The notes beneath the pieces were generated by a model. It saw nothing but the letters and a program-made list of their open reading frames with translations. It ran no database searches and was not told the origin of the DNA. DNA of 64,000 bases, taken from IMG/VR virus record IMGVR_UViG_3300036791_000759, positions 2,414 to 66,413 of that record. One strand, written 5' to 3'. A program made the position numbers and the translations under genes. Positions 31,051 through 41,601 of the stretch are shown piece by piece. This DNA comes from a virus. Position 1 is the stretch's first letter. Each line of letters starts with the position of its first letter.

Positions 31051-32022
31051 TTAGCTCGCCGCACAATAAAGCTCGACAAGCGTCTTGCCGTCGAGAACTT
31101 TTGTACCAAACACCTGCAACCCGCGCAGAATATTGCCAAAGGTCAGCTCGGAACGCAGTGTCTCGACATTGCTGATCTGACTGGCAAACGTCAGCCCAGC
31201 CGGATGTCCTGCGAAGATACGCGTACAGTGATGCGTACCGTCGGTCACCGCCGGCAGCAGATTCGAGCTGTAGAGCGTAAACCGGTCGATCATACCAAGC
31301 CGGCCATTTCTCGCGAGAGAAACACCGTCGCCCGAGATCGACGCATTACGCAGGTCAGACTTCTTGATCATCGACCCAAACCACGGCGGAATGACAAGCC
31401 AACGTCCCGTCTCCGGGATGTTATACTCATCGAGGCATTGACCCATATTGACGATCTGGTCAACGACGTTGCCTGCCGTGCCTGAAGCACCGCCAACAAC
31501 GATAACCGGCGTCCCCGTCACCCCCAGGTTGATGTTCTGCGAAATCGCCCCGGCTGTCGCCCCCTTGTTAAACGTATCGATGCCCGCATCGATCGTACCC
31601 AAGACGGTCGTGTCGATCTGGATCTTCATCTGCTCGGATGCATCGTCCGCCCACATCGACAGCAGCTCCATATCCGACTGGAACTTCATCACATCATCGA
31701 GCACCAGGTTGAAGTACTTGGCATAGTCGATGGTCAGCTCGACCGTCGAACCCGACGGGCGATCAACCGTCAACGCCATATCCAGCTGGTAATCGTGGAT
31801 GGTAATGGTCGGCTTGGTGCGGATCTTGACCTTGTCGCCCATGTTCCTGATCTCGCCCTCATAGTCGGTGTTTGAGATGGCGTTCAGAACAGTCGCGGCA
31901 TAGAACTTCTCGATCAGCTTGCCCGCCCAGATTTCTGGTACGAACACACCACCGGCCGGCGCCCCCGTATAGGCTGGGTTAGCCGCTACACCGGAATACG
32001 GTGTACCTTGTGAAATAGCCAT
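31051..32022 (-). CDS. Major capsid protein
   Basis: FVPEIWAGKLIEKFY..ISNTDYEGEI..GDKVKIR pattern; follows scaffold; strong RBS. Confidence 0.9.
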   Translation of the reverse strand: MAISQGTPYSGVAANPAYTGAPAGGVFVPEIWAGKLIEKFYAATVLNAISNTDYEGEIRNMGDKVKIRTKPTITIHDYQLDMALTVDRPSGSTVELTIDYAKYFNLVLDDVMKFQSDMELLSMWADDASEQMKIQIDTTVLGTIDAGIDTFNKGATAGAISQNINLGVTGTPVIVVGGASGTAGNVVDQIVNMGQCLDEYNIPETGRWLVIPPWFGSMIKKSDLRNASISGDGVSLARNGRLGMIDRFTLYSSNLLPAVTDGTHHCTRIFAGHPAGLTFASQISNVETLRSELTFGNILRGLQVFGTKVLDGKTLVELYCAAS

Positions 32023-35865: not shown

Positions 35866-38082
35866 TCACTGCACCATCAGGTACTTCCCCTGCCGCCCAG
35901 GACGGGGGTCAGGGACATAGTGATTGCCGTCTGGTGCCATGCGGGCACCGGGAAGCGGCGGCTGACCGGACGGTGCCTGCGGCGGCTGCGGCGGCTGCGG
36001 TGGCTGCGGTGGCTGCGGGCCTGCCGCTGCGGCAGGCCCGATCTGACCGCCGGCCTGGTTGCGCGCCATCGCCTGCTGCGCCTCCATCGCCAGCTGTGCC
36101 GCCTGCTGTGCCTTCTGCTGCTCGGCCTGCTGCTGCACCGTGTCGTCGTCGGGCACGATGTCGTCGGGCAACCCCAGCCCCTTGGCCAAGGCACGCAGCA
36201 CACGACCCCGGCCGACCTCGCCGACAATCTGCGAGTCGAGCGGGTTCATCGTAATCTGGAGGAACTGCAGCTGCTTCTGCTGCTCGGTCTCTTTTTGCAG
36301 CGCCACGACGACGCCATTGACCTCGATCTGCTCGTTACCGGTCAGCAGTCCTGACCGGTCGGTCAGCATGATCATGTCGTAGAGCCGGTCGAGCACACCG
36401 CGCAGCACATCGTCATCGATGTTGGCGGCGACCGTTTGTAAGACCTTCTGAGCGTTGCCCATCAGCATCGAAAGACCGGAAGCGGTGCGGCCAGCGCCGC
36501 CCTTCAAGCTCTCGCCGGTGATGTAGCGCGGGATCGCCGAGATATCGTCGGCGAGGCCCGTCACCGCCTGGTAGATGCCGATCAGCTCCTGGGCGTTGGA
36601 CGACGGCTGAAAGAAGGTCACCGGCTCCCGGGTCGAGCCCAACGGGTCCGACAGGATCTTCCAGCGCTTCCAAGGATAGAGATTGTCTTCGTTAGTCGTC
36701 GGGTCGAGGAGTTCAGTATTGACGACAACCTGGGGACCGCTAGCGATCGACATATTGTTGACCAATGCTCGGAGCGTCGCATTAGCGACTTCCTGCAGAT
36801 CTTCAAGGATGTCAGTCAGCCCGTGCCCAGCGACGGTGCCCGGCACCTTCTCAAAACTGGTCAGGTAATAGGGGTGCCGCTGGCGCGGGCTCGGGCTGAT
36901 CTGGGTCTTGAGCGTGTGCTGCCCGACGACCCAGCTCTCCACCAGGTAATCCCGATCAAGGTCGGGCACCTGTTGTCGCGCAACACCGTTCTCCAGGAGC
37001 ATCCGCCCCTGGATGTGTCCGTGGTACTCGATGCAGTCAATCAGCTGCGAATAGTTCATAAACGGCGATTCGCGGTTGCGCAGCAGTGCCGCCTCGGTAT
37101 CCGGCGCGTCGAGCCAGTCTCTGAGGCCATGCGCGTAGTCTTCGAGCGAAGCGAGCACCGCCGCGTTGTTGTAGCCGGGCAGCCCGATCAGCGCGTTGAG
37201 GTCGGCCCGGGTTAATTTTTTGCGCTCGATGATCTCGGCGCTTTCCAGCGAGACCGCACCGGGATCCCAGTAGAGGTTAAAGGGGTCAACCCGCTCCCAG
37301 AACATCTGCGGGATGTTCTGGATCGACGGTGTGTTGCCCTGCCACTGCAGCTTGGGCACCATCCGAACCGTCGGCCCCTTGATGCAGGCGAAAGGGTAGA
37401 GCGGCAGATCGACCAGGAACTCCGCCAGGGCATCGTAGAAATGCCCCTGCATCAGGATGTCGTCGATCTTGTTAGAGGCGGCCTCGGCCTGGTTCTGCGC
37501 CTGACGCAACGCTGTCTGCTGCGCCTGGTGAACCAGGTTGACGTAGCGCATATGCGCCGAGTCGGGGTCAGGCGGGGTGCCCATCGCGTGTTGCTGCGCC
37601 GCCTCGGACGCGACAACCTGGGCAATCGCCGACATGATCTGTGGCGGGATCGGCGGGTCGGGCTGCGACTCGATCGTCCACGGCCGGTCGCCCCCAAGAT
37701 AGACATCACGCAGCAGTGATGTCGCGCCGCGACACTTGACCGCCACCAGGCGAGAATACACCACCGACCCGCCGAACTTTAAAATCTCCTGGCGCTTATC
37801 GGGATCGTATTGACCCTCGAACACACGCTGCGCCCGTAGTAATCTCTGATTCAGGGGATTGTTACCGGTGTTCCGATGATTGCGGAACATCTGCCAGCGA
37901 TTGCGTATGTACTTGGATAGGTCTTCGACTGTCGGTGGACGGTTTCTTTGCGACTGCGCAGCCAGATTGTCGGCGTCTTGTTGATCCAACTCAGCGGGGG
38001 AGACAACGCGCAGGAAGCCCGGCGCCATCCGATTAGCGGCGGGCGGCGAGGAGGAGGTTCTCCCCGGTATCGCCTGCGGCAC
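35866..38082 (-). CDS. Portal protein
   Basis: 738 aa, first gene of virion operon; NATLRALVNNMSIASGPQV and GRTASGLSMLM motifs. Confidence 0.88.
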   Translation of the reverse strand: MPQAIPGRTSSSPPAANRMAPGFLRVVSPAELDQQDADNLAAQSQRNRPPTVEDLSKYIRNRWQMFRNHRNTGNNPLNQRLLRAQRVFEGQYDPDKRQEILKFGGSVVYSRLVAVKCRGATSLLRDVYLGGDRPWTIESQPDPPIPPQIMSAIAQVVASEAAQQHAMGTPPDPDSAHMRYVNLVHQAQQTALRQAQNQAEAASNKIDDILMQGHFYDALAEFLVDLPLYPFACIKGPTVRMVPKLQWQGNTPSIQNIPQMFWERVDPFNLYWDPGAVSLESAEIIERKKLTRADLNALIGLPGYNNAAVLASLEDYAHGLRDWLDAPDTEAALLRNRESPFMNYSQLIDCIEYHGHIQGRMLLENGVARQQVPDLDRDYLVESWVVGQHTLKTQISPSPRQRHPYYLTSFEKVPGTVAGHGLTDILEDLQEVANATLRALVNNMSIASGPQVVVNTELLDPTTNEDNLYPWKRWKILSDPLGSTREPVTFFQPSSNAQELIGIYQAVTGLADDISAIPRYITGESLKGGAGRTASGLSMLMGNAQKVLQTVAANIDDDVLRGVLDRLYDMIMLTDRSGLLTGNEQIEVNGVVVALQKETEQQKQLQFLQITMNPLDSQIVGEVGRGRVLRALAKGLGLPDDIVPDDDTVQQQAEQQKAQQAAQLAMEAQQAMARNQAGGQIGPAAAAGPQPPQPPQPPQPPQAPSGQPPLPGARMAPDGNHYVPDPRPGRQGKYLMVQ

Positions 38083-38136
38083 TTTTATGTTCCCCTATGA
38101 GTTTATAGGCCCTATAGATATACCACAGGTCAGGAA

Positions 38137-38742
38137 ATGCGCAATACCCCAGGAAATTCGCGCGTGAATGGCTCCTCAATCGACGCCCTGATCGACGAAG
38201 TTATCGTGCTGGATGACAACCCGGCAGTCGATGACGCGCTGATCCTCAAACTACAATATGACCTGGCACTGCAGCTCCACCCATTTGACGAGATCGCCAT
38301 CCGCTACGGGCTCAGAACACCGGAGCGGCTTTACAAATATCTCAAGGGCCACCCCAACATCGTCGCCGGTGTAAAGAAGCTCCGCGCCAACCTCGAAAGC
38401 GAAGAGGGTGTCGAAGCCCGGGTGCGCCTAAAAGCCCTCGCCGCCACCGAGAACCTCATCATCCCCACCGCGTCGATCGCCGCCGATCCCCGGATCCCGG
38501 CGCAGCAACGGATCGATGCGTTTAAGCAGCTCAACCGCGTCGGCGGTGTCGATGGCAGTCAGGCCGCCAATAAAAACGCCAGCACGATCGGCGCAAACTT
38601 TGTTCTTAATATTCACTTCCGCAACGGTAGTGACGAAACCATCGTTGCTACGGTAGCACCCCCCGACGAACCTCGTAAGACCACAAGGTCACCAACCCTC
38701 GAAGACGATGATGATCCAGAGTTCGAGGACGAGGACATCTAG
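38137..38742 (+). CDS. Putative terminase small subunit
   Basis: Immediately upstream of TerL; HTH-like N-terminus, helical core, FVLNIHF strand. Confidence 0.65.
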   Translation: MRNTPGNSRVNGSSIDALIDEVIVLDDNPAVDDALILKLQYDLALQLHPFDEIAIRYGLRTPERLYKYLKGHPNIVAGVKKLRANLESEEGVEARVRLKALAATENLIIPTASIAADPRIPAQQRIDAFKQLNRVGGVDGSQAANKNASTIGANFVLNIHFRNGSDETIVATVAPPDEPRKTTRSPTLEDDDDPEFEDEDI

Positions 38743-40938
38743 GTGGAATACGTTCCACCACCCACCGTCGAAGCCTTTATGCGGGACACGCACCGCATCC
38801 GCGTCATCGTCGGGCCCTTGGGCTCCGGCAAGACGATGGGTTGTATTATGGAGCTGGTGCGCTGGGCCTGTGCCCAGCCGGCGTGGAACAAGACGCGCTA
38901 TACCCGCTTCGCCCTCATAAGAAACACCCTGCAACAACTCCGCCAGACCGTGCTCGCCGACGCGGTGAGCTATCTCCAGGGTGTGGTGCATTTCTACACC
39001 ACCGACTCGACCCTGCAGCTGCGATTAAATCTCCCCGACGGGACGCATGTCCACTCGGACTGGCCGCTCATCCCGCTCGACAGCAAGGAAGACGTTCGGC
39101 GCTTGCTATCCATGCAACTCACCGGCGCCTACATCAACGAGCTGCGCGAAGTCCCGTTTGACATCATCCGGCCGCTGCTTGGTAGGTGCGGCCGCTACCC
39201 CTCCAAGGCAATGGGCGGCGCCGCCAAGCGCGGGATCATCGCCGATACCAACCCGTGGGACACCGACGCGCCCTACCACGACCGTCTGGTGCTCAATCCC
39301 CACCCGGCGTGGAAGCTCTTTCACCAGCCCTCGGGTCTGAGCCCCCTGGCGGAGAACATCGAAAACCTCGCCGAGGGTTATTACGACGAGCTGATGGACG
39401 ATAAGGATCTCGACTGGGCAGCGGTCCACGTCGAATCGCAGTGGGGCACGTCCAACGCCGGCCAGGCGGTTTTTAGAAAGAGCTTTCACGCCCCCAGCCA
39501 CGTCCGCGACATGAAGGTGGTGGTCAACCCGGCCAAGCCGATCATGGTTGGTCTCGATTTTGGCCGCACCCCCTGCGCGGTCATTGGCCAGCACGACAAT
39601 TACGGCCGCGCGATCATCATGAAGGAGGTGGTCACCGAGGGGATGGGGCTCATCCAGATGGTGGAGGAGCACCTCAAACCAGTCCTCTTAGCGCCACCCT
39701 TTGCCGGAAAGCGAGTTTTTATCGTTGGCGACCCCGCCGGCCGGGCACGCAGCCAGGTCTCCGAGTCGACCCCGTTTGACGATCTCAATGATCTCGGGTT
39801 TCTGGCTTATCCGGCATCGACCAACGCGATCGACGCACGTTTGACTGCTGTCGAGAAGCTGATGCGCTCGACAATCATGGAGCAGCCGGCGCTGCAGATC
39901 TCGCGCGAGGGCTGCCCCATCCTGGTGCAGTCCCTCGGAAATAAATATCGCTATCGCCGCCGGCGCGACGGCCAGCTCGACGATCTGCCCGACAAGCAGC
40001 ACCCGTGGTCGGACGTATGTTTTGTCGCCGGGACACCGATCGCGACGCCTATGGGCGATGTACCCATCGAGACACTGCGTCCCGGCCATCTAGTAGCAAC
40101 GCCGGCCGGGGCGCGCCGGATCGAAGTCACTGGCGCCCGCGAAGTGGCCGTTACGGTGGAAGTTAAATTAAGCGACGGACGCACTGTGCGCTGCACGCCC
40201 GAGCACCCGTTTGCCTGTCAAGGGCAGTGGGTTCCGGCATTCATGCTCCGGCAGGGAGACGTATTAGAATGCCAACAACGAAACAGAAGTTCCTCGGTAA
40301 ATGGTATTACCGATACGGCGGTAACCAATACTTCTGGAACAAAAACGGCGGCAAATCGACCTCGCTGCACCGGGCCGTCTGGGAACACCATAACGGACCG
40401 CCTCCGCCAGGCTGCCACGTCCATCACAAGGACGGTGACCCAGCTAACAACGACATTGCCAACCTGGAAATTTACACGGCTAGCGACCACGCCCGCAAAC
40501 ATTGGGCCGGCACTATTCCAGAGGAGTTTACCTGCGTTCGCTGTGGGAAGCCCTACAAGGTCATTGCTCAAGCCCGCAAGCGGGGGTTCTGCTCACCGTA
40601 TTGTCAATCCAGGACACGACTCGAAAGCGGGATCGACCACGAAGCCAGGATCTGCGTCCAATGCGGCGTACCTTTTTTCGTCAACAAATACACCCCGATT
40701 AAAACCTGTTCCCGTCGTTGCGGAACTAAAATATCTGCAAGAAAGCGTAATAGTAATAAATCTAAGAGTAGCTAACACTCATTGCTATTATGCCAACTCA
40801 TTACTTGTTCATAACTGTGACGCCCTACAATACTTCTGTTTAGGCACCCAGTCTAACTACACCGCGCGGGTCATGCGGCGCGACCGGCCGCGTGTCACCC
40901 AATCCCGAGAACTCGTCACCGCCGCCGGGTGGACCTGA
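38743..40938 (+). CDS. terL: Terminase large subunit containing an intein
   Basis: GPLGSGKT Walker A, YINE Walker B, VGLDFG nuclease motif, HPWSDV/CDALQY split by the intein. Confidence 0.93.
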   Translation: MEYVPPPTVEAFMRDTHRIRVIVGPLGSGKTMGCIMELVRWACAQPAWNKTRYTRFALIRNTLQQLRQTVLADAVSYLQGVVHFYTTDSTLQLRLNLPDGTHVHSDWPLIPLDSKEDVRRLLSMQLTGAYINELREVPFDIIRPLLGRCGRYPSKAMGGAAKRGIIADTNPWDTDAPYHDRLVLNPHPAWKLFHQPSGLSPLAENIENLAEGYYDELMDDKDLDWAAVHVESQWGTSNAGQAVFRKSFHAPSHVRDMKVVVNPAKPIMVGLDFGRTPCAVIGQHDNYGRAIIMKEVVTEGMGLIQMVEEHLKPVLLAPPFAGKRVFIVGDPAGRARSQVSESTPFDDLNDLGFLAYPASTNAIDARLTAVEKLMRSTIMEQPALQISREGCPILVQSLGNKYRYRRRRDGQLDDLPDKQHPWSDVCFVAGTPIATPMGDVPIETLRPGHLVATPAGARRIEVTGAREVAVTVEVKLSDGRTVRCTPEHPFACQGQWVPAFMLRQGDVLECQQRNRSSSVNGITDTAVTNTSGTKTAANRPRCTGPSGNTITDRLRQAATSITRTVTQLTTTLPTWKFTRLATTPANIGPALFQRSLPAFAVGSPTRSLLKPASGGSAHRIVNPGHDSKAGSTTKPGSASNAAYLFSSTNTPRLKPVPVVAELKYLQESVIVINLRVANTHCYYANSLLVHNCDALQYFCLGTQSNYTARVMRRDRPRVTQSRELVTAAGWT
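40018..40815 (+). mobile_element. Intein (266 aa) in the TerL nuclease domain
   Basis: Block A CFVAGTPI, block B TPEHPF, block F/G VINLRVANTHCYYANSLLVHN, +1 Cys. Confidence 0.93.
40269..40775 (+). CDS. HNH homing endonuclease with zinc fingers, encoded in an alternative frame inside the intein
   Basis: GGAG RBS near 40254; LHRAVW..VHHKDGDPANNDIANL..H HNH motif; CxxC..CSxxC repeats. Confidence 0.9.
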   Translation: MPTTKQKFLGKWYYRYGGNQYFWNKNGGKSTSLHRAVWEHHNGPPPPGCHVHHKDGDPANNDIANLEIYTASDHARKHWAGTIPEEFTCVRCGKPYKVIAQARKRGFCSPYCQSRTRLESGIDHEARICVQCGVPFFVNKYTPIKTCSRRCGTKISARKRNSNKSKSS

Positions 40939-41141
40939 TGTTTACCGTCACCAAACAGATGCGCCAGGAACTGCGGAAGCAGGTCGGCGACATCATGCGC
41001 GGCGAGCGCAAGCTAGCACGCCCGCTGCGGATCCCGACCTATCTCGGCGGGGATTTTGTCAGGCCGGGGAAGAACCCGCGCTCGACGGAAGCCCTGCTCA
41101 ACCCCGTCGACCCTAAACCGGGCCCGCCAATGGAGGACTGA
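40938..41141 (+). CDS. Hypothetical protein
   Basis: TGATG coupling to TerL. Confidence 0.6.
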   Translation: MFTVTKQMRQELRKQVGDIMRGERKLARPLRIPTYLGGDFVRPGKNPRSTEALLNPVDPKPGPPMED

Positions 41142-41147
41142 ACAACG

Positions 41148-41393
41148 GTGACAACCCTCGCCGCCACAGCGGTGTGCATGTTGACATTCCACAGCCCGGA
41201 CGGCGGCGCGTTGCTGATCTCAAGCGACGCCATCAAGGCCATCAAGCCAGCGGCGGTTGAGCATCACAAGCATCTCACCGAGGGGACAAACGCGGTGATC
41301 TATATCGGTGTTCGGTCAAGCGGGTTTGGCGTCCACGAGACACTGGAGCAAGCCATGCAGATCATCCGGGATTGCGAGGCTCACGGTCCATGA
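41148..41393 (+). CDS. Hypothetical protein
   Basis: GGAGG RBS, GTG start. Confidence 0.6.
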   Translation: MTTLAATAVCMLTFHSPDGGALLISSDAIKAIKPAAVEHHKHLTEGTNAVIYIGVRSSGFGVHETLEQAMQIIRDCEAHGP

Positions 41394-41599
41394 CACACCC
41401 TGACCGCAACCGCGCACGCGCGCGGATCATCATCACCGACCCCGAGGAAGTGATCCACGTTACCATCTACCGCGACGGCGAGCTTCCGGTCAGGGTCGAG
41501 CAGACCGCACTGCAAAGTCTGATAATCGCCAAACAGCTGCTCGACGCCGCGCTGCGCCGGCTGGTGCGCGACCCCTGCGTGCGAACCCAGTACCTATAA
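41390..41599 (+). CDS. Hypothetical protein
   Basis: ATGA coupling to upstream gene. Confidence 0.55.
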   Translation: MTHPDRNRARARIIITDPEEVIHVTIYRDGELPVRVEQTALQSLIIAKQLLDAALRRLVRDPCVRTQYL

Positions 41600-41601
41600 G
41601 A

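Follow-up and report, generated by a model that had tools for sequence, protein, structure and literature searches.

An HNH endonuclease gene encoded out of frame within a terminase intein of a soil phage, and the recurrence of this layout in other viruses

The gene for the large terminase subunit (TerL) of an uncultivated soil phage contains an intein, and within the intein an HNH endonuclease is encoded in a different reading frame. In textbooks the homing endonuclease of an intein is carried in frame. Here it lies in the -1 frame, whereas in the canonical bifunctional intein it shares the frame of the splicing domain. The out-of-frame HNH is a real feature of the DNA, confirming what an earlier note had drawn from the letters alone. 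We consider it probable, at roughly 0.8, that this is a composite selfish element, in which a contiguous terL intein accommodates an HNH_3 gene of the free-standing type on the same strand, one base out of frame. Because the same double-coding layout recurs in dozens of unrelated phages, it appears to be a real and recently recognized kind of mobile element, of which the phage described here is one more member.

The window analysed is a stretch of 64,000 nucleotides from the 66.4-kb IMG/VR record IMGVR_UViG_3300036791_000759, and all the features described lie on its plus strand. TerL is encoded by one open frame of 731 amino acids with a GTG start in the ORF list (38743–40938); it is not divided into two ORFs around the HNH, and it matches phrog_2, terminase large subunit, in PHROGs (E 3.8e-21). 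The N-extein (425 aa, 38743–40017) covers the ATPase domain and the greater part of the RNaseH-like nuclease domain, and its last residues are HPWSDV. The class-1 intein (266 aa, C1 to HN266, 40018–40815) is placed exactly between V424 and the +1 cysteine of TerL, and the C-extein runs from CDALQY to the stop codon (40816–40938, alignment A2). The insertion point, HPWSDV/CDALQY, falls at the final catalytic motif of the nuclease domain of TerL.

All the elements of a splicing domain are present. The N-terminal lobe (residues 1 to ~88, 40018–40281) contains block A (CFVAG) and block B, and the C-terminal lobe (residues ~230–266, 40705–40815) contains blocks F and G. C1 (TGT at 40018), T60, H63 and N266 are invariant across 57 relatives (alignment A3); T60-P-E-H63 forms the TxxH of block B, and VHN266 closes the intein, followed by cysteine at +1. 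Thus the ORF calls and the alignment bear out the claim of a 266-aa intein with intact CFVAG, TPEHPF (residues 60–65) and VHN/C in an open TerL frame. This frame matches Hint_2, Intein_splicing, PT-HINT and Vint in Pfam and no nuclease family there, while a home-made HMM of the C-part matches the C-lobe. AlphaFold models the lobes confidently (pLDDT 86–97), with a beta-rich N-lobe and, in the C-lobe (pLDDT 88–97), beta strands at 233–265. In Foldseek the modelled lobes superpose on the gp41-1 mini-intein (6qaz; TM-target 0.87, rmsd 1.8), MchDnaB-1 (E 4e-6) and the Mtu RecA mini-intein also match, and 21 PDB chains are matched at E <= 0.001. Since the splicing blocks are intact and TerL is essential, we infer a class-1 intein that is capable of splicing.

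Between the lobes the TerL frame has a quite different character. The linker (residues 87–232, 40276–40713) is Ser/Thr-rich, with 28.8% Ser+Thr compared to 10% in the remaining intein, and is modelled as disordered, with pLDDT of 42–56 and no secondary structure. No column of the linker is conserved in alignment A3 of the relatives. The central segment had been described as ~170 aa, Thr/Ser-rich and devoid of a nuclease motif; its composition and the lack of a nuclease-family match hold, but the length is 146 aa. Judging from these sequences, the linker is a by-product of the overlapping HNH gene, merely kept free of stop codons.

The HNH ORF (168 aa plus stop) runs from an ATG at 40269 to 40775, in the -1 frame of TerL ((40269-38743) mod 3 = 2, an offset of +2), and its C-terminal tail overlaps the C-lobe of the intein by ~70 nt. 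The GC content drops to 0.39–0.45 across the C-lobe. The product scores 59.5 bits with Pfam HNH_3 (cut-off 24.8) over residues 33–76, and matches phrog_15471 (HNH endonuclease, PHROGs) over almost its full length (E 1.4e-25); there is no match to Endonuclease_7 in Pfam at E up to 0.1. It consists of N-terminal beta-hairpins, the HNH core and two zinc ribbons of the form CxxC...C...C, and is modelled by AlphaFold with a mean pLDDT of 93.5. Ten residues are invariant in 57 HNH relatives, i.e. H34, H52, H53, N61, N65, H74, C89, C92, C108 and C112. The HNH_3 score and the invariant cysteines leave the description of a clean HNH with CxxC zinc fingers intact. I-HmuI is the intron-encoded HNH homing endonuclease of phage SPO1, and its structure (PDB 1u3e) is the best PDB match of the model (probability 0.96), albeit weakly so (E 0.03, TM 0.30), with no PDB match at E <= 0.001 in Foldseek. 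Both proteins are modular, with N-terminal beta-hairpins followed by the HNH core, but the C-terminal DNA-binding part of the window HNH is formed by the two zinc ribbons, unlike that of I-HmuI.

Could the layout be an artefact, with two compensating indels concealing a canonical in-frame HNH intein, or with a terL that is dead? We regard this as extremely improbable. One Logan contig of 2320 nt from run X1 spans 39610–41600 with 0 differences and 0 gaps, and three Logan contigs from run X2 tile 39682–41600 with 0 differences; the runs were compared as assembled contigs, not raw reads, and the window itself may stem from the samples behind X1 and X2. Run X3, from another study, contains a diverged intein allele with an HNH region of the same length: at 85% likeness there is no cover at 40392–40652, and one contig bridges this interval as a diverged sequence of equal length. 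Moreover, the +2 offset recurs in 95 sequences from three collections, and the IMG/VR record, which is rated 100% complete, holds no second HNH match. Compensating frameshifts in the assembly, which the earlier note had held out as a possible refutation, are excluded because independent contigs lack indels and the layout recurs.

Substitutions among the relatives follow the codon phase of the HNH gene. In 27 pairs at 80–99.9% identity the substitutions per site at HNH codon positions 1, 2 and 3 are 0.027, 0.022 and 0.075, and in 36 pairs at 60–80% they are 0.211, 0.171 and 0.461; the ranking is unchanged in two deeper identity bins, the pairs being phylogenetically non-independent. Amino acid identity is higher in the HNH frame than in the TerL frame (71.6 versus 45.0, and 39.9 versus 20.4). 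With the catalytic and zinc residues invariant as well, the comparison argues that the HNH frame is under purifying selection, as the earlier reading required, whereas for the linker in the TerL frame only openness is maintained.

The TerL frame is indeed kept open. Across the HNH the host frame has 0 stops in 60 of 61 cluster representatives, compared with a median of 6 in non-embedded relatives. For the window alone the stop avoidance is not significant, with P(0 stops) = 0.32 by shuffling of synonymous codons within the gene and 0.25 on re-coding with the phage's own codon usage. Over the representatives the median under shuffling is 0.021; in the AT-rich relatives L002 and L003 none of 1000 shuffles is stop-free, and in L028 one of 1000. 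It is therefore the family that argues against chance, since an open frame in the window alone is not improbable. The ~500 nt of dual-coding DNA proposed for this essential gene is upheld in that both frames are open, the HNH appears selected and the linker is stop-free; this is natural dual coding in which one frame would be selected for its sequence and the other for openness only.

How general is the layout? We analysed 150 sequences. Besides the window these comprise 149 loci drawn from phages in GenBank, genomes in GTDB and IMG/VR, the last represented by the best 80 of at least 559 matches. In 96 of the 150 the HNH is spanned by an open frame on its own strand, in 95 of them HNH+1 and in one HNH+2. 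Using intein-lobe HMMs built from the same family that they classify, we find both N and C lobes flanking an overprinted HNH in 91 of the 150 loci, which form 61 clusters at 70% HNH identity. In 23 further loci terL is split into two genes around the same HNH, and among the 114 loci with both intein lobes there is no in-frame HNH. Overprinting is thus the main layout in this terminase-intein family.

The layout is carried by bacterial and archaeal viruses and prophages, and the family extends over Bacteroidota, Bacillota, Chloroflexota, Planctomycetota, Patescibacteria and archaeal contigs. A tblastn search with the HNH finds matches within the annotated terL of Tetrasphaera phage TJE1, Acinetobacter phage Highwayman and Clostridium phage phiCDHM19, all at an offset of +2. 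TJE1 is the only actinobacterial phage among the matches listed (60 for the TJE1 HNH and 30 for P0002). A blastn search of 39900–40950 in distant mode against GenBank phages gave no match. Pfam terminase matches are present in 8 of 10 sampled host N-exteins, and include both the Terminase_3 and Terminase_6 types. The closest HNH relatives are at most 45% identical to that of the window, so that no donor or recent transfer can be named. In a poorly resolved FastTree of 101 HNH proteins (52 of 98 inner branches open) the embedded and non-embedded states change 19 times, at least 6 of these forced by starred branches. On this tree the two states are interspersed, and we do not take the order of events from it.

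The location of the HNH inside terL might suggest a protein domesticated as a helper of packaging, in the way that some HNH proteins aid terminases at cos sites, rather than a homing enzyme; HNH endonucleases adjoining terminase genes are indeed reported as common in phages (PMC3592412). We think this very unlikely. The 119 intein-less proteins among the 120 closest TerLs work without the HNH, the HNH_3 domain and its best structural match are of the homing-enzyme type, and the HNH, in TerL families that are unrelated, is always found with an intein or split intein at a single site.

The HNH of the composite element has its own putative signals for translation. A GGAG Shine-Dalgarno-like core (40255–40258) is embedded in the TerL codons cag-gga-gac (Q-G-D), 10 nt 5′ to the ATG at 40269, just as had been noted; the spacing is long. 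Elsewhere a comparable 4-nt core lies upstream of the HNH in 34 of 60 representatives, and the start codon is ATG in 52, GTG in 7 and TTG in 1. Sigma-70-type promoters (0 sites in 37900–41300 compared to 1.0 expected) and terminator-like sites (3 compared to 3.0) are uninformative, and no RNA run was found to contain the stretch. Both the GGAG and the ATG of the window are predicted to be paired within an RNA hairpin (40236–40273) with a minimum free energy of -17.5 kcal/mol and a z of -3.14, and none of 200 dinucleotide shuffles folds as well. This could possibly act as a translational brake that is opened by ribosomes translating terL. A masking hairpin as a rule for the family was considered and rejected: the median z is ~0, and just 10 of the 60 representatives fall below -2. 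Full pairing of the start codon is predicted for 19 of the 60, and a significant hairpin is found in the window only.

An alternative is that the HNH is made by programmed -1 ribosomal frameshifting, as a fusion to the N-extein and the N-terminal part of the intein. The HNH lies in the -1 frame in 95 of the 96 open-frame loci, and in the window its frame is already free of stops from 40167, ~100 nt before the ATG, both of which would suit such a mechanism. Yet there is no X_XXY_YYZ slippery heptamer in the TerL frame between 40018 and 40300. In 46 of 60 representatives a stop in the HNH frame lies within 10 codons upstream of the start (within 3 codons in 18), an ATG stands exactly at the start in 52 of 60, and in the 23 split relatives this HNH has a gene to itself, flanked by the halves of terL. 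Frameshifting is therefore highly improbable, and these features point to translation of the HNH as a separate protein from its own start.

The intein is sporadic among its nearest relatives. Of 1598 TerL relatives found, 119 of the best 120 are intein-less, the sole carrier being the window's own protein; the 119 are proteins of 435–476 aa that are 62–86% identical to the N-extein. When five intein-less alleles are aligned with it (alignment A2), the insertion measures exactly 266 aa, and at the +1 position these alleles have C (P0005, P0006 and P0030), V (P0004) or S (P0010). In a contig of run X3, position 40013 is followed after 7 different letters by 40819, so that a net 798 nt are absent, which corresponds exactly to the intein; this run therefore contains an intein-less allele beside the diverged intein allele. 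In two pairs of loci the HNH proteins are 55–57% identical while the N-exteins are unalignable; over all comparisons of extein and HNH identity, clear discordance is seen in only 2 of 1176 pairs. Together the family to which the HNH belongs and the sporadic distribution suggest that it is a homing enzyme.

It may be asked whether the window HNH is instead a decaying relic, in an element that has become fixed and immobile and whose intein still splices but has in effect become a long-looped mini-intein. In alignment A4 a block of 51 columns that separates the nuclease core from the zinc ribbons is retained in 55 of 57 aligned relatives but is mostly missing from the window HNH, a gap shared by L005 alone; the enzyme may therefore be impaired. 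The burial of its GGAG and ATG in a stable hairpin, the want of a relative of intein or HNH closer than 45%, and an open frame that in the window alone needs no special selection would all fit a relic. However, the 168-codon ORF is intact, its ten invariant catalytic and zinc residues are all present and its fold is confidently predicted. That 119 of the 120 nearest TerLs are intein-less is more easily reconciled with a recent gain than with long residence, and in run X3 a diverged intein allele of equal length occurs together with an intein-less one. We thus regard the relic as unlikely, although less so than the other alternatives.

The composite selfish element could work as follows. The mRNA of terL would be read through the whole 266-aa intein, with the ~146 codons overlapping the HNH producing a Ser/Thr-rich, disordered loop at the site where insertions are tolerated in mini-inteins. 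The two HINT lobes would fold together and splice, generating a TerL of 465 aa. Internal initiation at the ATG of 40269, with its GGAG 10 nt upstream, would yield the separate 168-aa HNH; in the window this start is probably masked by the hairpin, which would be melted by ribosomes translating terL. In a mixed infection the HNH would cut an intein-less terL at or near the insertion site, and repair would copy intein and HNH together into the cut allele, i.e. homing. Selection would then maintain the protein sequence of the HNH, and in the other frame only the splicing lobes and the absence of stops. The element would stay out of frame because a move into frame needs two simultaneous frameshifts in an essential gene. 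Alternatively, stops may arise in the linker, so dividing terL into two genes with a split intein, the state that is seen in relatives.

Out-of-frame endonucleases within inteins have been described before, and were called rare in 2025–2026 (a 2025 preprint; bioRxiv 10.64898/2026.09.14.751524). The caution that this may not be the first example was well placed, since the preprint reports frame-3 Endo VII-like endonucleases in inteins of actinophages, with TerL among the hosts. As far as its account goes, those inteins share with the present one the same-strand endonuclease gene in the endonuclease region of a contiguous intein, the offset of +2, a TerL host and an unstructured in-frame linker, and in its authors' proposal they arose when a free-standing endonuclease gene invaded. 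Two things differ here, the nuclease family and a far wider spread. The preprint describes IPR004211 with a structural match to T4 endo VII, whereas we find HNH_3 with a possibly I-HmuI-like fold and two zinc ribbons. Its set is given as actinophages of PhagesDB only, and may overlap with ours at TJE1-like cases. That preprint also cites a 1997 intein with a homing nuclease of the HNH superfamily; the combination of intein and superfamily is shared, but here the nuclease is outside the intein polypeptide, none of 114 loci having it in frame. In the cyanobacterial dnaX intein (Phillips et al. 2026, bioRxiv 10.64898/2026.09.14.751524) the endonuclease gene similarly overlaps the linker, is under purifying selection and is sporadic, yet according to the 2025 preprint it is a LAGLIDADG enzyme encoded on the opposite strand, and its host is a cellular gene.

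The fractured genes of Dassa et al. 2009 (PMC2677866) are close in organization. There, too, the endonuclease gene lies between the intein lobes and overlaps the downstream lobe; our 23 split relatives have exactly this organization in terL, and gp41-1, on which the window lobes superpose, is a split intein from that study. In contrast, the host frame of the window is uninterrupted and its intein contiguous. The endonucleases described in that work are GIY-YIG and Vsr-like, with HNH only predicted as a possible gene breaker. ShiLan, in DNA methylases of phages (Arsenault et al. 2025, PMC11855218), resembles the present case as a hidden HNH ORF on a stop-free in-frame insertion in a phage gene. 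It is however described as lacking a splicing domain and being retained in the host protein, where here intact lobes flank the HNH, and as starting at GTG with no RBS, where here ATG predominates. Literature searches for terminase inteins with an overprinting or overlapping-frame endonuclease, by those words, gave nothing relevant; a search on split inteins, terminase large subunit and HNH found no such arrangement described, and none was found for inteins in TJE1 or phiCDHM19.

The family provides material for how inteins gain endonucleases and how split inteins arise, as it includes all the stages, i.e. free-standing, overprinted and fractured, and the split relatives may prove to be useful new split inteins. 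A broader proposal, to which we would give even odds, is that the composite element is old, remains mobile and has overprinting as its usual condition rather than as a rare accident. It would hit the same catalytic motif in unrelated TerL proteins across many bacterial phyla and archaea, be unable to reach the in-frame state, and decay repeatedly into split inteins that cut terL in two. If so, it would be a long-sought living intermediate on the route by which a free-standing endonuclease gene invades a mini-intein to give bifunctional and split inteins, and would offer a large reservoir of natural split inteins that is so far untapped.

As a rule the nuclease goes unnoticed by gene callers, and in public records the region is labelled 'terminase large subunit' only.

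The terL ORF (38743–40938, plus strand, 731 codons) matches PHROG 2, terminase large subunit (PHROGs search, E 3.8e-21), and Hint-type Pfam families match residues 425–691 of its product (Hint_2, 36–38 bits against a cut-off of 28.4). Translation of 40018–40815 (plus strand) bears out the intein of the earlier note: 266 residues that begin with CFVAG, carry T-P-E-H at positions 60–63 and end with V-H-N, with Cys as the next residue. Alignment of 57 inteins leaves C1, T60, H63 and N266 as the only invariant residues; no linker column is conserved. The middle had been described as Thr/Ser-rich, about 170 residues long and devoid of a nuclease motif; the composition stands (28.8% Ser+Thr against 10% elsewhere), but the linker comprises 146 residues (87–232). 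In an AlphaFold2 model based on a 57-row alignment, residues 1 to ~88 and ~230 to 266 have pLDDT values of 86–97, and residues ~90–225 have values of 42–56 and lack secondary structure. A PDB structure search superposes the gp41-1 mini-intein on the two modelled lobes (TM-target 0.87, rmsd 1.8), as well as MchDnaB-1 and the splicing domain of Mtu RecA. The loop exits the HINT fold at the usual place of endonuclease domains and natural split sites in inteins.

The HNH ORF runs on the plus strand from an ATG at 40269 to a stop at 40773–40775, and encodes 168 residues in the −1 frame of terL ((40269−38743) mod 3 = 2). It overlies structured intein sequence at its ends only, by ~4 codons at the 5′ end and ~23 at the 3′ end. 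The product matches Pfam HNH_3 (59.5 bits against a cut-off of 24.8) and, over nearly its full length, PHROG 15471 (HNH endonuclease), so that the clean −1-frame nuclease reported at 40269–40775 is upheld, as are its own ATG and the GGAG (40255–40258) within the intein codons Q-G-D. Ten residues are invariant among 57 aligned HNH proteins (H34, H52, H53, N61, N65, H74, C89, C92, C108 and C112). The AlphaFold2 model (57-row alignment, mean pLDDT 93.5) comprises beta-hairpins, a helix, the HNH core, two zinc-ribbon units similar to YacG-type zinc fingers, and a C-terminal helix; its top PDB match is the homing endonuclease I-HmuI (probability 0.96, with a weak E of 0.03). Its nearest relatives are at most 45% identical. 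The window HNH may be crippled, because it lacks most of a 51-column block (columns 97–148 of the HNH protein alignment) that is kept by 55 of 57 relatives. The missing segment, which separates the nuclease core from the zinc ribbons, is helical and has an almost invariant W-H pair; among the 57 relatives only one, L005, has the same gap.

Could the two frames be an artefact of assembly? Independent Logan assemblies of two soil runs reproduce the region with zero differences, one (X1) as a 2320-nt contig spanning 39610–41600 and the other (X2) as three contigs tiling 39682–41600. This agreement is weak alone, because both runs are possibly the source samples. A run from another study (X3) contains a diverged copy, in which a 675-nt contig matches 40198–40342 and 40681–40872 with the intervening 338 nt diverged and of the same length; an additional contig crosses the extein/intein junction. 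Much stronger evidence is the recurrence of the layout elsewhere. Taken with the indel-free independent contigs it rules out an assembly artefact, including the compensating frameshifts that had been a concern.

How widespread is the layout? A tblastn search with the HNH matched 49 of 50,697 GenBank phage records. The matches in Tetrasphaera phage TJE1, Acinetobacter phage vB_AbaM_Highwayman and Clostridium phage phiCDHM19 fall inside genes annotated plainly as terminase large subunit. In all three the match begins at offset +2 to the terL CDS, and terL is open across an intein in the corresponding position (...H / C...HN or SN / C-D-A), in phiCDHM19 despite 31% GC. The alignment of four HNH proteins was then used as query, and the best 80 of at least 559 IMG/VR matches were fetched with 75 loci from GTDB genomes; the analysed set is 150 sequences (the window and 149 loci) with a plus-strand tblastn match. 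A second same-strand frame is open over the whole HNH, in a stretch of at least 250 codons, in 96 of the 150. This is the HNH+1 frame in 95 and HNH+2 in one, and the remaining frame has 4–37 stops. Home-made HMMs of the intein lobes, seeded with the four phages and iterated on the same locus set, each match 93 of the 96 loci, and both lobes flank the HNH in 91. These embedded loci represent 78 distinct HNH nucleotide sequences (66 clusters at 90% and 61 at 70% HNH identity), and comprise 3/3 from GenBank, 63/80 from IMG/VR (the best 80 of at least 559) and 24/66 from GTDB, where contig labels include Bacteroides, Coprococcus, Chloroflexia, Phycisphaeraceae, Patescibacteria, Acidobacteria, Methanomethylophilaceae, Thermoplasmatales, Woesearchaeota and others. 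The sole locus with its intein frame at HNH+2 is on a Planctomycetota MAG contig (L124:2787–3551), and its offset may reflect an independent origin or a double frameshift.

Pfam terminase families are found in 8 of 10 sampled host N-exteins, of both the Terminase_3/3C and Terminase_6N/6C types. Their nuclease-domain match stops at profile positions 129–140 of 155. The element therefore occupies the same homologous catalytic motif in TerLs that differ greatly.

Selection was analysed by pairwise comparison of the 78 distinct embedded sequences in HNH-protein-guided codon alignments. Per-site differences at the first, second and third HNH codon positions are 0.027/0.022/0.075 (27 pairs of 80–99.9% identity), 0.211/0.171/0.461 (36 pairs, 60–80%), 0.411/0.361/0.613 (643 pairs, 45–60%) and 0.476/0.427/0.656 (2276 pairs, 30–45%), so that the ranking is identical in all four bins, though the pairs are non-independent. 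Variation is greatest at the HNH wobble base, which corresponds to codon position 2 in the TerL frame. Amino-acid identities encoded by the same DNA in the HNH and TerL frames are, from the closest bin, 95.3/90.6, 71.6/45.0, 48.3/25.5 and 39.9/20.4%. Both measures confirm purifying selection in the HNH frame. Of the 61 cluster representatives, 60 are free of TerL-frame stops across the HNH; the remaining one, L124, uses the other frame. With synonymous codons shuffled gene by gene, the medians for the cluster representatives are 2.41 expected stops and a P(0) of 0.021. The window has a high GC content and few xTA and xTG codons, and its P(0) is 0.32 by shuffling and 0.25 with the phage's own codon usage; taken alone, its open TerL frame is unremarkable. 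Among the 41 non-embedded relatives the median number of stops is 6 for the HNH+1 frame and 16 for the other, and it is plausible that the HNH+1 offset became established preferentially through its lower natural stop load.

Splicing, translation of the HNH and cleavage are activities that we infer. The HNH might be made by −1 frameshifting from terL, and the comparison favours independent initiation instead. Candidate starts in 60 representatives (ATG in 52, GTG in 7 and TTG in one) lie just upstream of the conserved N-terminal hairpin, with a stop in the HNH frame at most 10 codons upstream in 46 and at most 3 codons in 18; a 4-nt Shine–Dalgarno core is present in 34, and many others have A-rich leaders without such a core. 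Frameshifting is further disfavoured by the lack of a slippery heptamer in the window, and by 23 relatives in which the HNH is a separate gene. A predicted RNA hairpin in the window (40236–40273; −17.5 kcal/mol, z −3.14, 0 of 200 shuffles as stable) pairs the GGAG and ATG of the HNH. Ribosomes translating terL would melt it and would thereby couple HNH synthesis to the expression of late genes. As a family trait the hairpin was rejected, being absent as a conserved feature across relatives.

The 59 non-embedded loci consist of 23 that are split, 6 with one lobe (4 of these at a contig end), 16 free-standing, 12 short matches and 2 at contig edges. At the split loci the intein N lobe ends an upstream ORF piece of 0.8–2.4 kb (mostly 1.1–1.7 kb), the C lobe opens a short downstream ORF and the HNH ORF lies in between; either the frames of the two lobes differ, or stops interrupt a frame that they share. 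Such terminase genes appear to contain natural split inteins associated with an HNH. The arrangement is that of the fractured genes described by Dassa et al. 2009 (PMC2677866), from which it differs in having an HNH and in residing in terL. Examples, each encoding N-extein plus N lobe and then C lobe plus C-extein, include L009, L011, L084 (Staphylococcus intermedius NCTC 11048), L088/L091 (Peptococcus simiae), L094, L102, L107, L108 and L111 (Limosilactobacillus gastricus). At L101, L109 and L111 the HNH match continues past stops in its own frame, leaving an open stretch far shorter than the tblastn match, and these endonucleases look like decaying copies. None of the 114 loci having both lobes has the HNH in frame with both. 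A quick, poorly resolved HNH tree mixes embedded and non-embedded states (19 changes, at least 6 of them forced). We read the overprinted form as a stable state: reaching the in-frame state would require two simultaneous frameshifts in an essential gene, and stops gained in the linker would give rise to split inteins.

An N-extein search found 1598 relatives at E ≤1e-10. Among the best 120 of these, 119 have 435–476 residues and 62–86% identity, and Hint domains occur solely in the protein of the window itself (721 aa as called). Aligned with five intein-less TerLs, the window protein has exactly 266 additional residues between ...HPWSDV and (C/V/S)DALQY, with Cys native at +1 in three of the five. 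In X3, on a contig ~88% identical to the window terL, 7 other letters separate 40013 from 40819; the net loss, 798 nt, is exactly the intein, and this allele has Val at +1. Also in this run are a diverged intein-and-HNH allele whose length is unchanged and stretches that match the window exactly; filled and empty alleles seem to coexist in this soil metagenome. In two locus pairs the HNH is 55–57% and the intein N lobe 49% identical, and the TerL N-exteins are unalignable. Such distributions would fit a homing element. The GC content of the intein N lobe is host-like (0.65; phage ~0.60–0.65), against 0.39–0.45 at 40625–40850, which comprises the HNH tail and the C lobe; this dip is possibly a hint of foreign, perhaps recent, or mosaic origin.

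An out-of-frame endonuclease in an intein is an already known kind of arrangement, because of reports in 2025 and 2026, and the earlier caution that this might not be the first example was well placed. Gosselin, Arsenault and Gogarten (bioRxiv 2025) cite anti-sense LAGLIDADG genes in inteins as known from 1998 onwards. They describe 63 actinophage inteins with non-canonical endonucleases; TerL is one of the four host proteins of a frame-3, Endo VII-like case that they call not previously reported, and they propose that free-standing HEGs invade inteins. Arsenault et al. 2025 (PMC11855218) report an out-of-frame HNH in a methylase insertion without a splicing domain, and a 2026 preprint on a dnaX intein (bioRxiv 10.64898/2026.09.14.751524) states that few broadly distributed examples are documented. 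Our literature searches did not find this HNH_3/zinc-ribbon family, its spread beyond actinophages, the lack of in-frame forms or HNH-split terL genes; the supplementary tables of the 2025 preprint may list related cases.

The virus record has 66,413 bases (CheckV completeness 100%), of which the window is bases 2414–66413. An ORF of 201 codons (38137–38742, plus strand) directly before terL ends one base ahead of its GTG, in the small-terminase position and without a PHROG match. The portal gene (35866–38082, minus strand; portal and head–tail adaptor families) is head to head with terL, and it and the head genes are transcribed divergently from that ORF; the major head protein gene is at 31051–32022, near terL. 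Annotation conceals the overprinted architecture. In cultured-phage GenBank records (H33, H34, H38, H43–H47 and H53–H57 in our list) the related HNH is labelled inconsistently, among others as ‘terminase large subunit’, ‘HNH endonuclease’, ‘hypothetical protein’ or, in Vibrio phages 1.238 and 1.245, ‘hedgehog/hint domain protein’ together with ‘terminase large subunit’.
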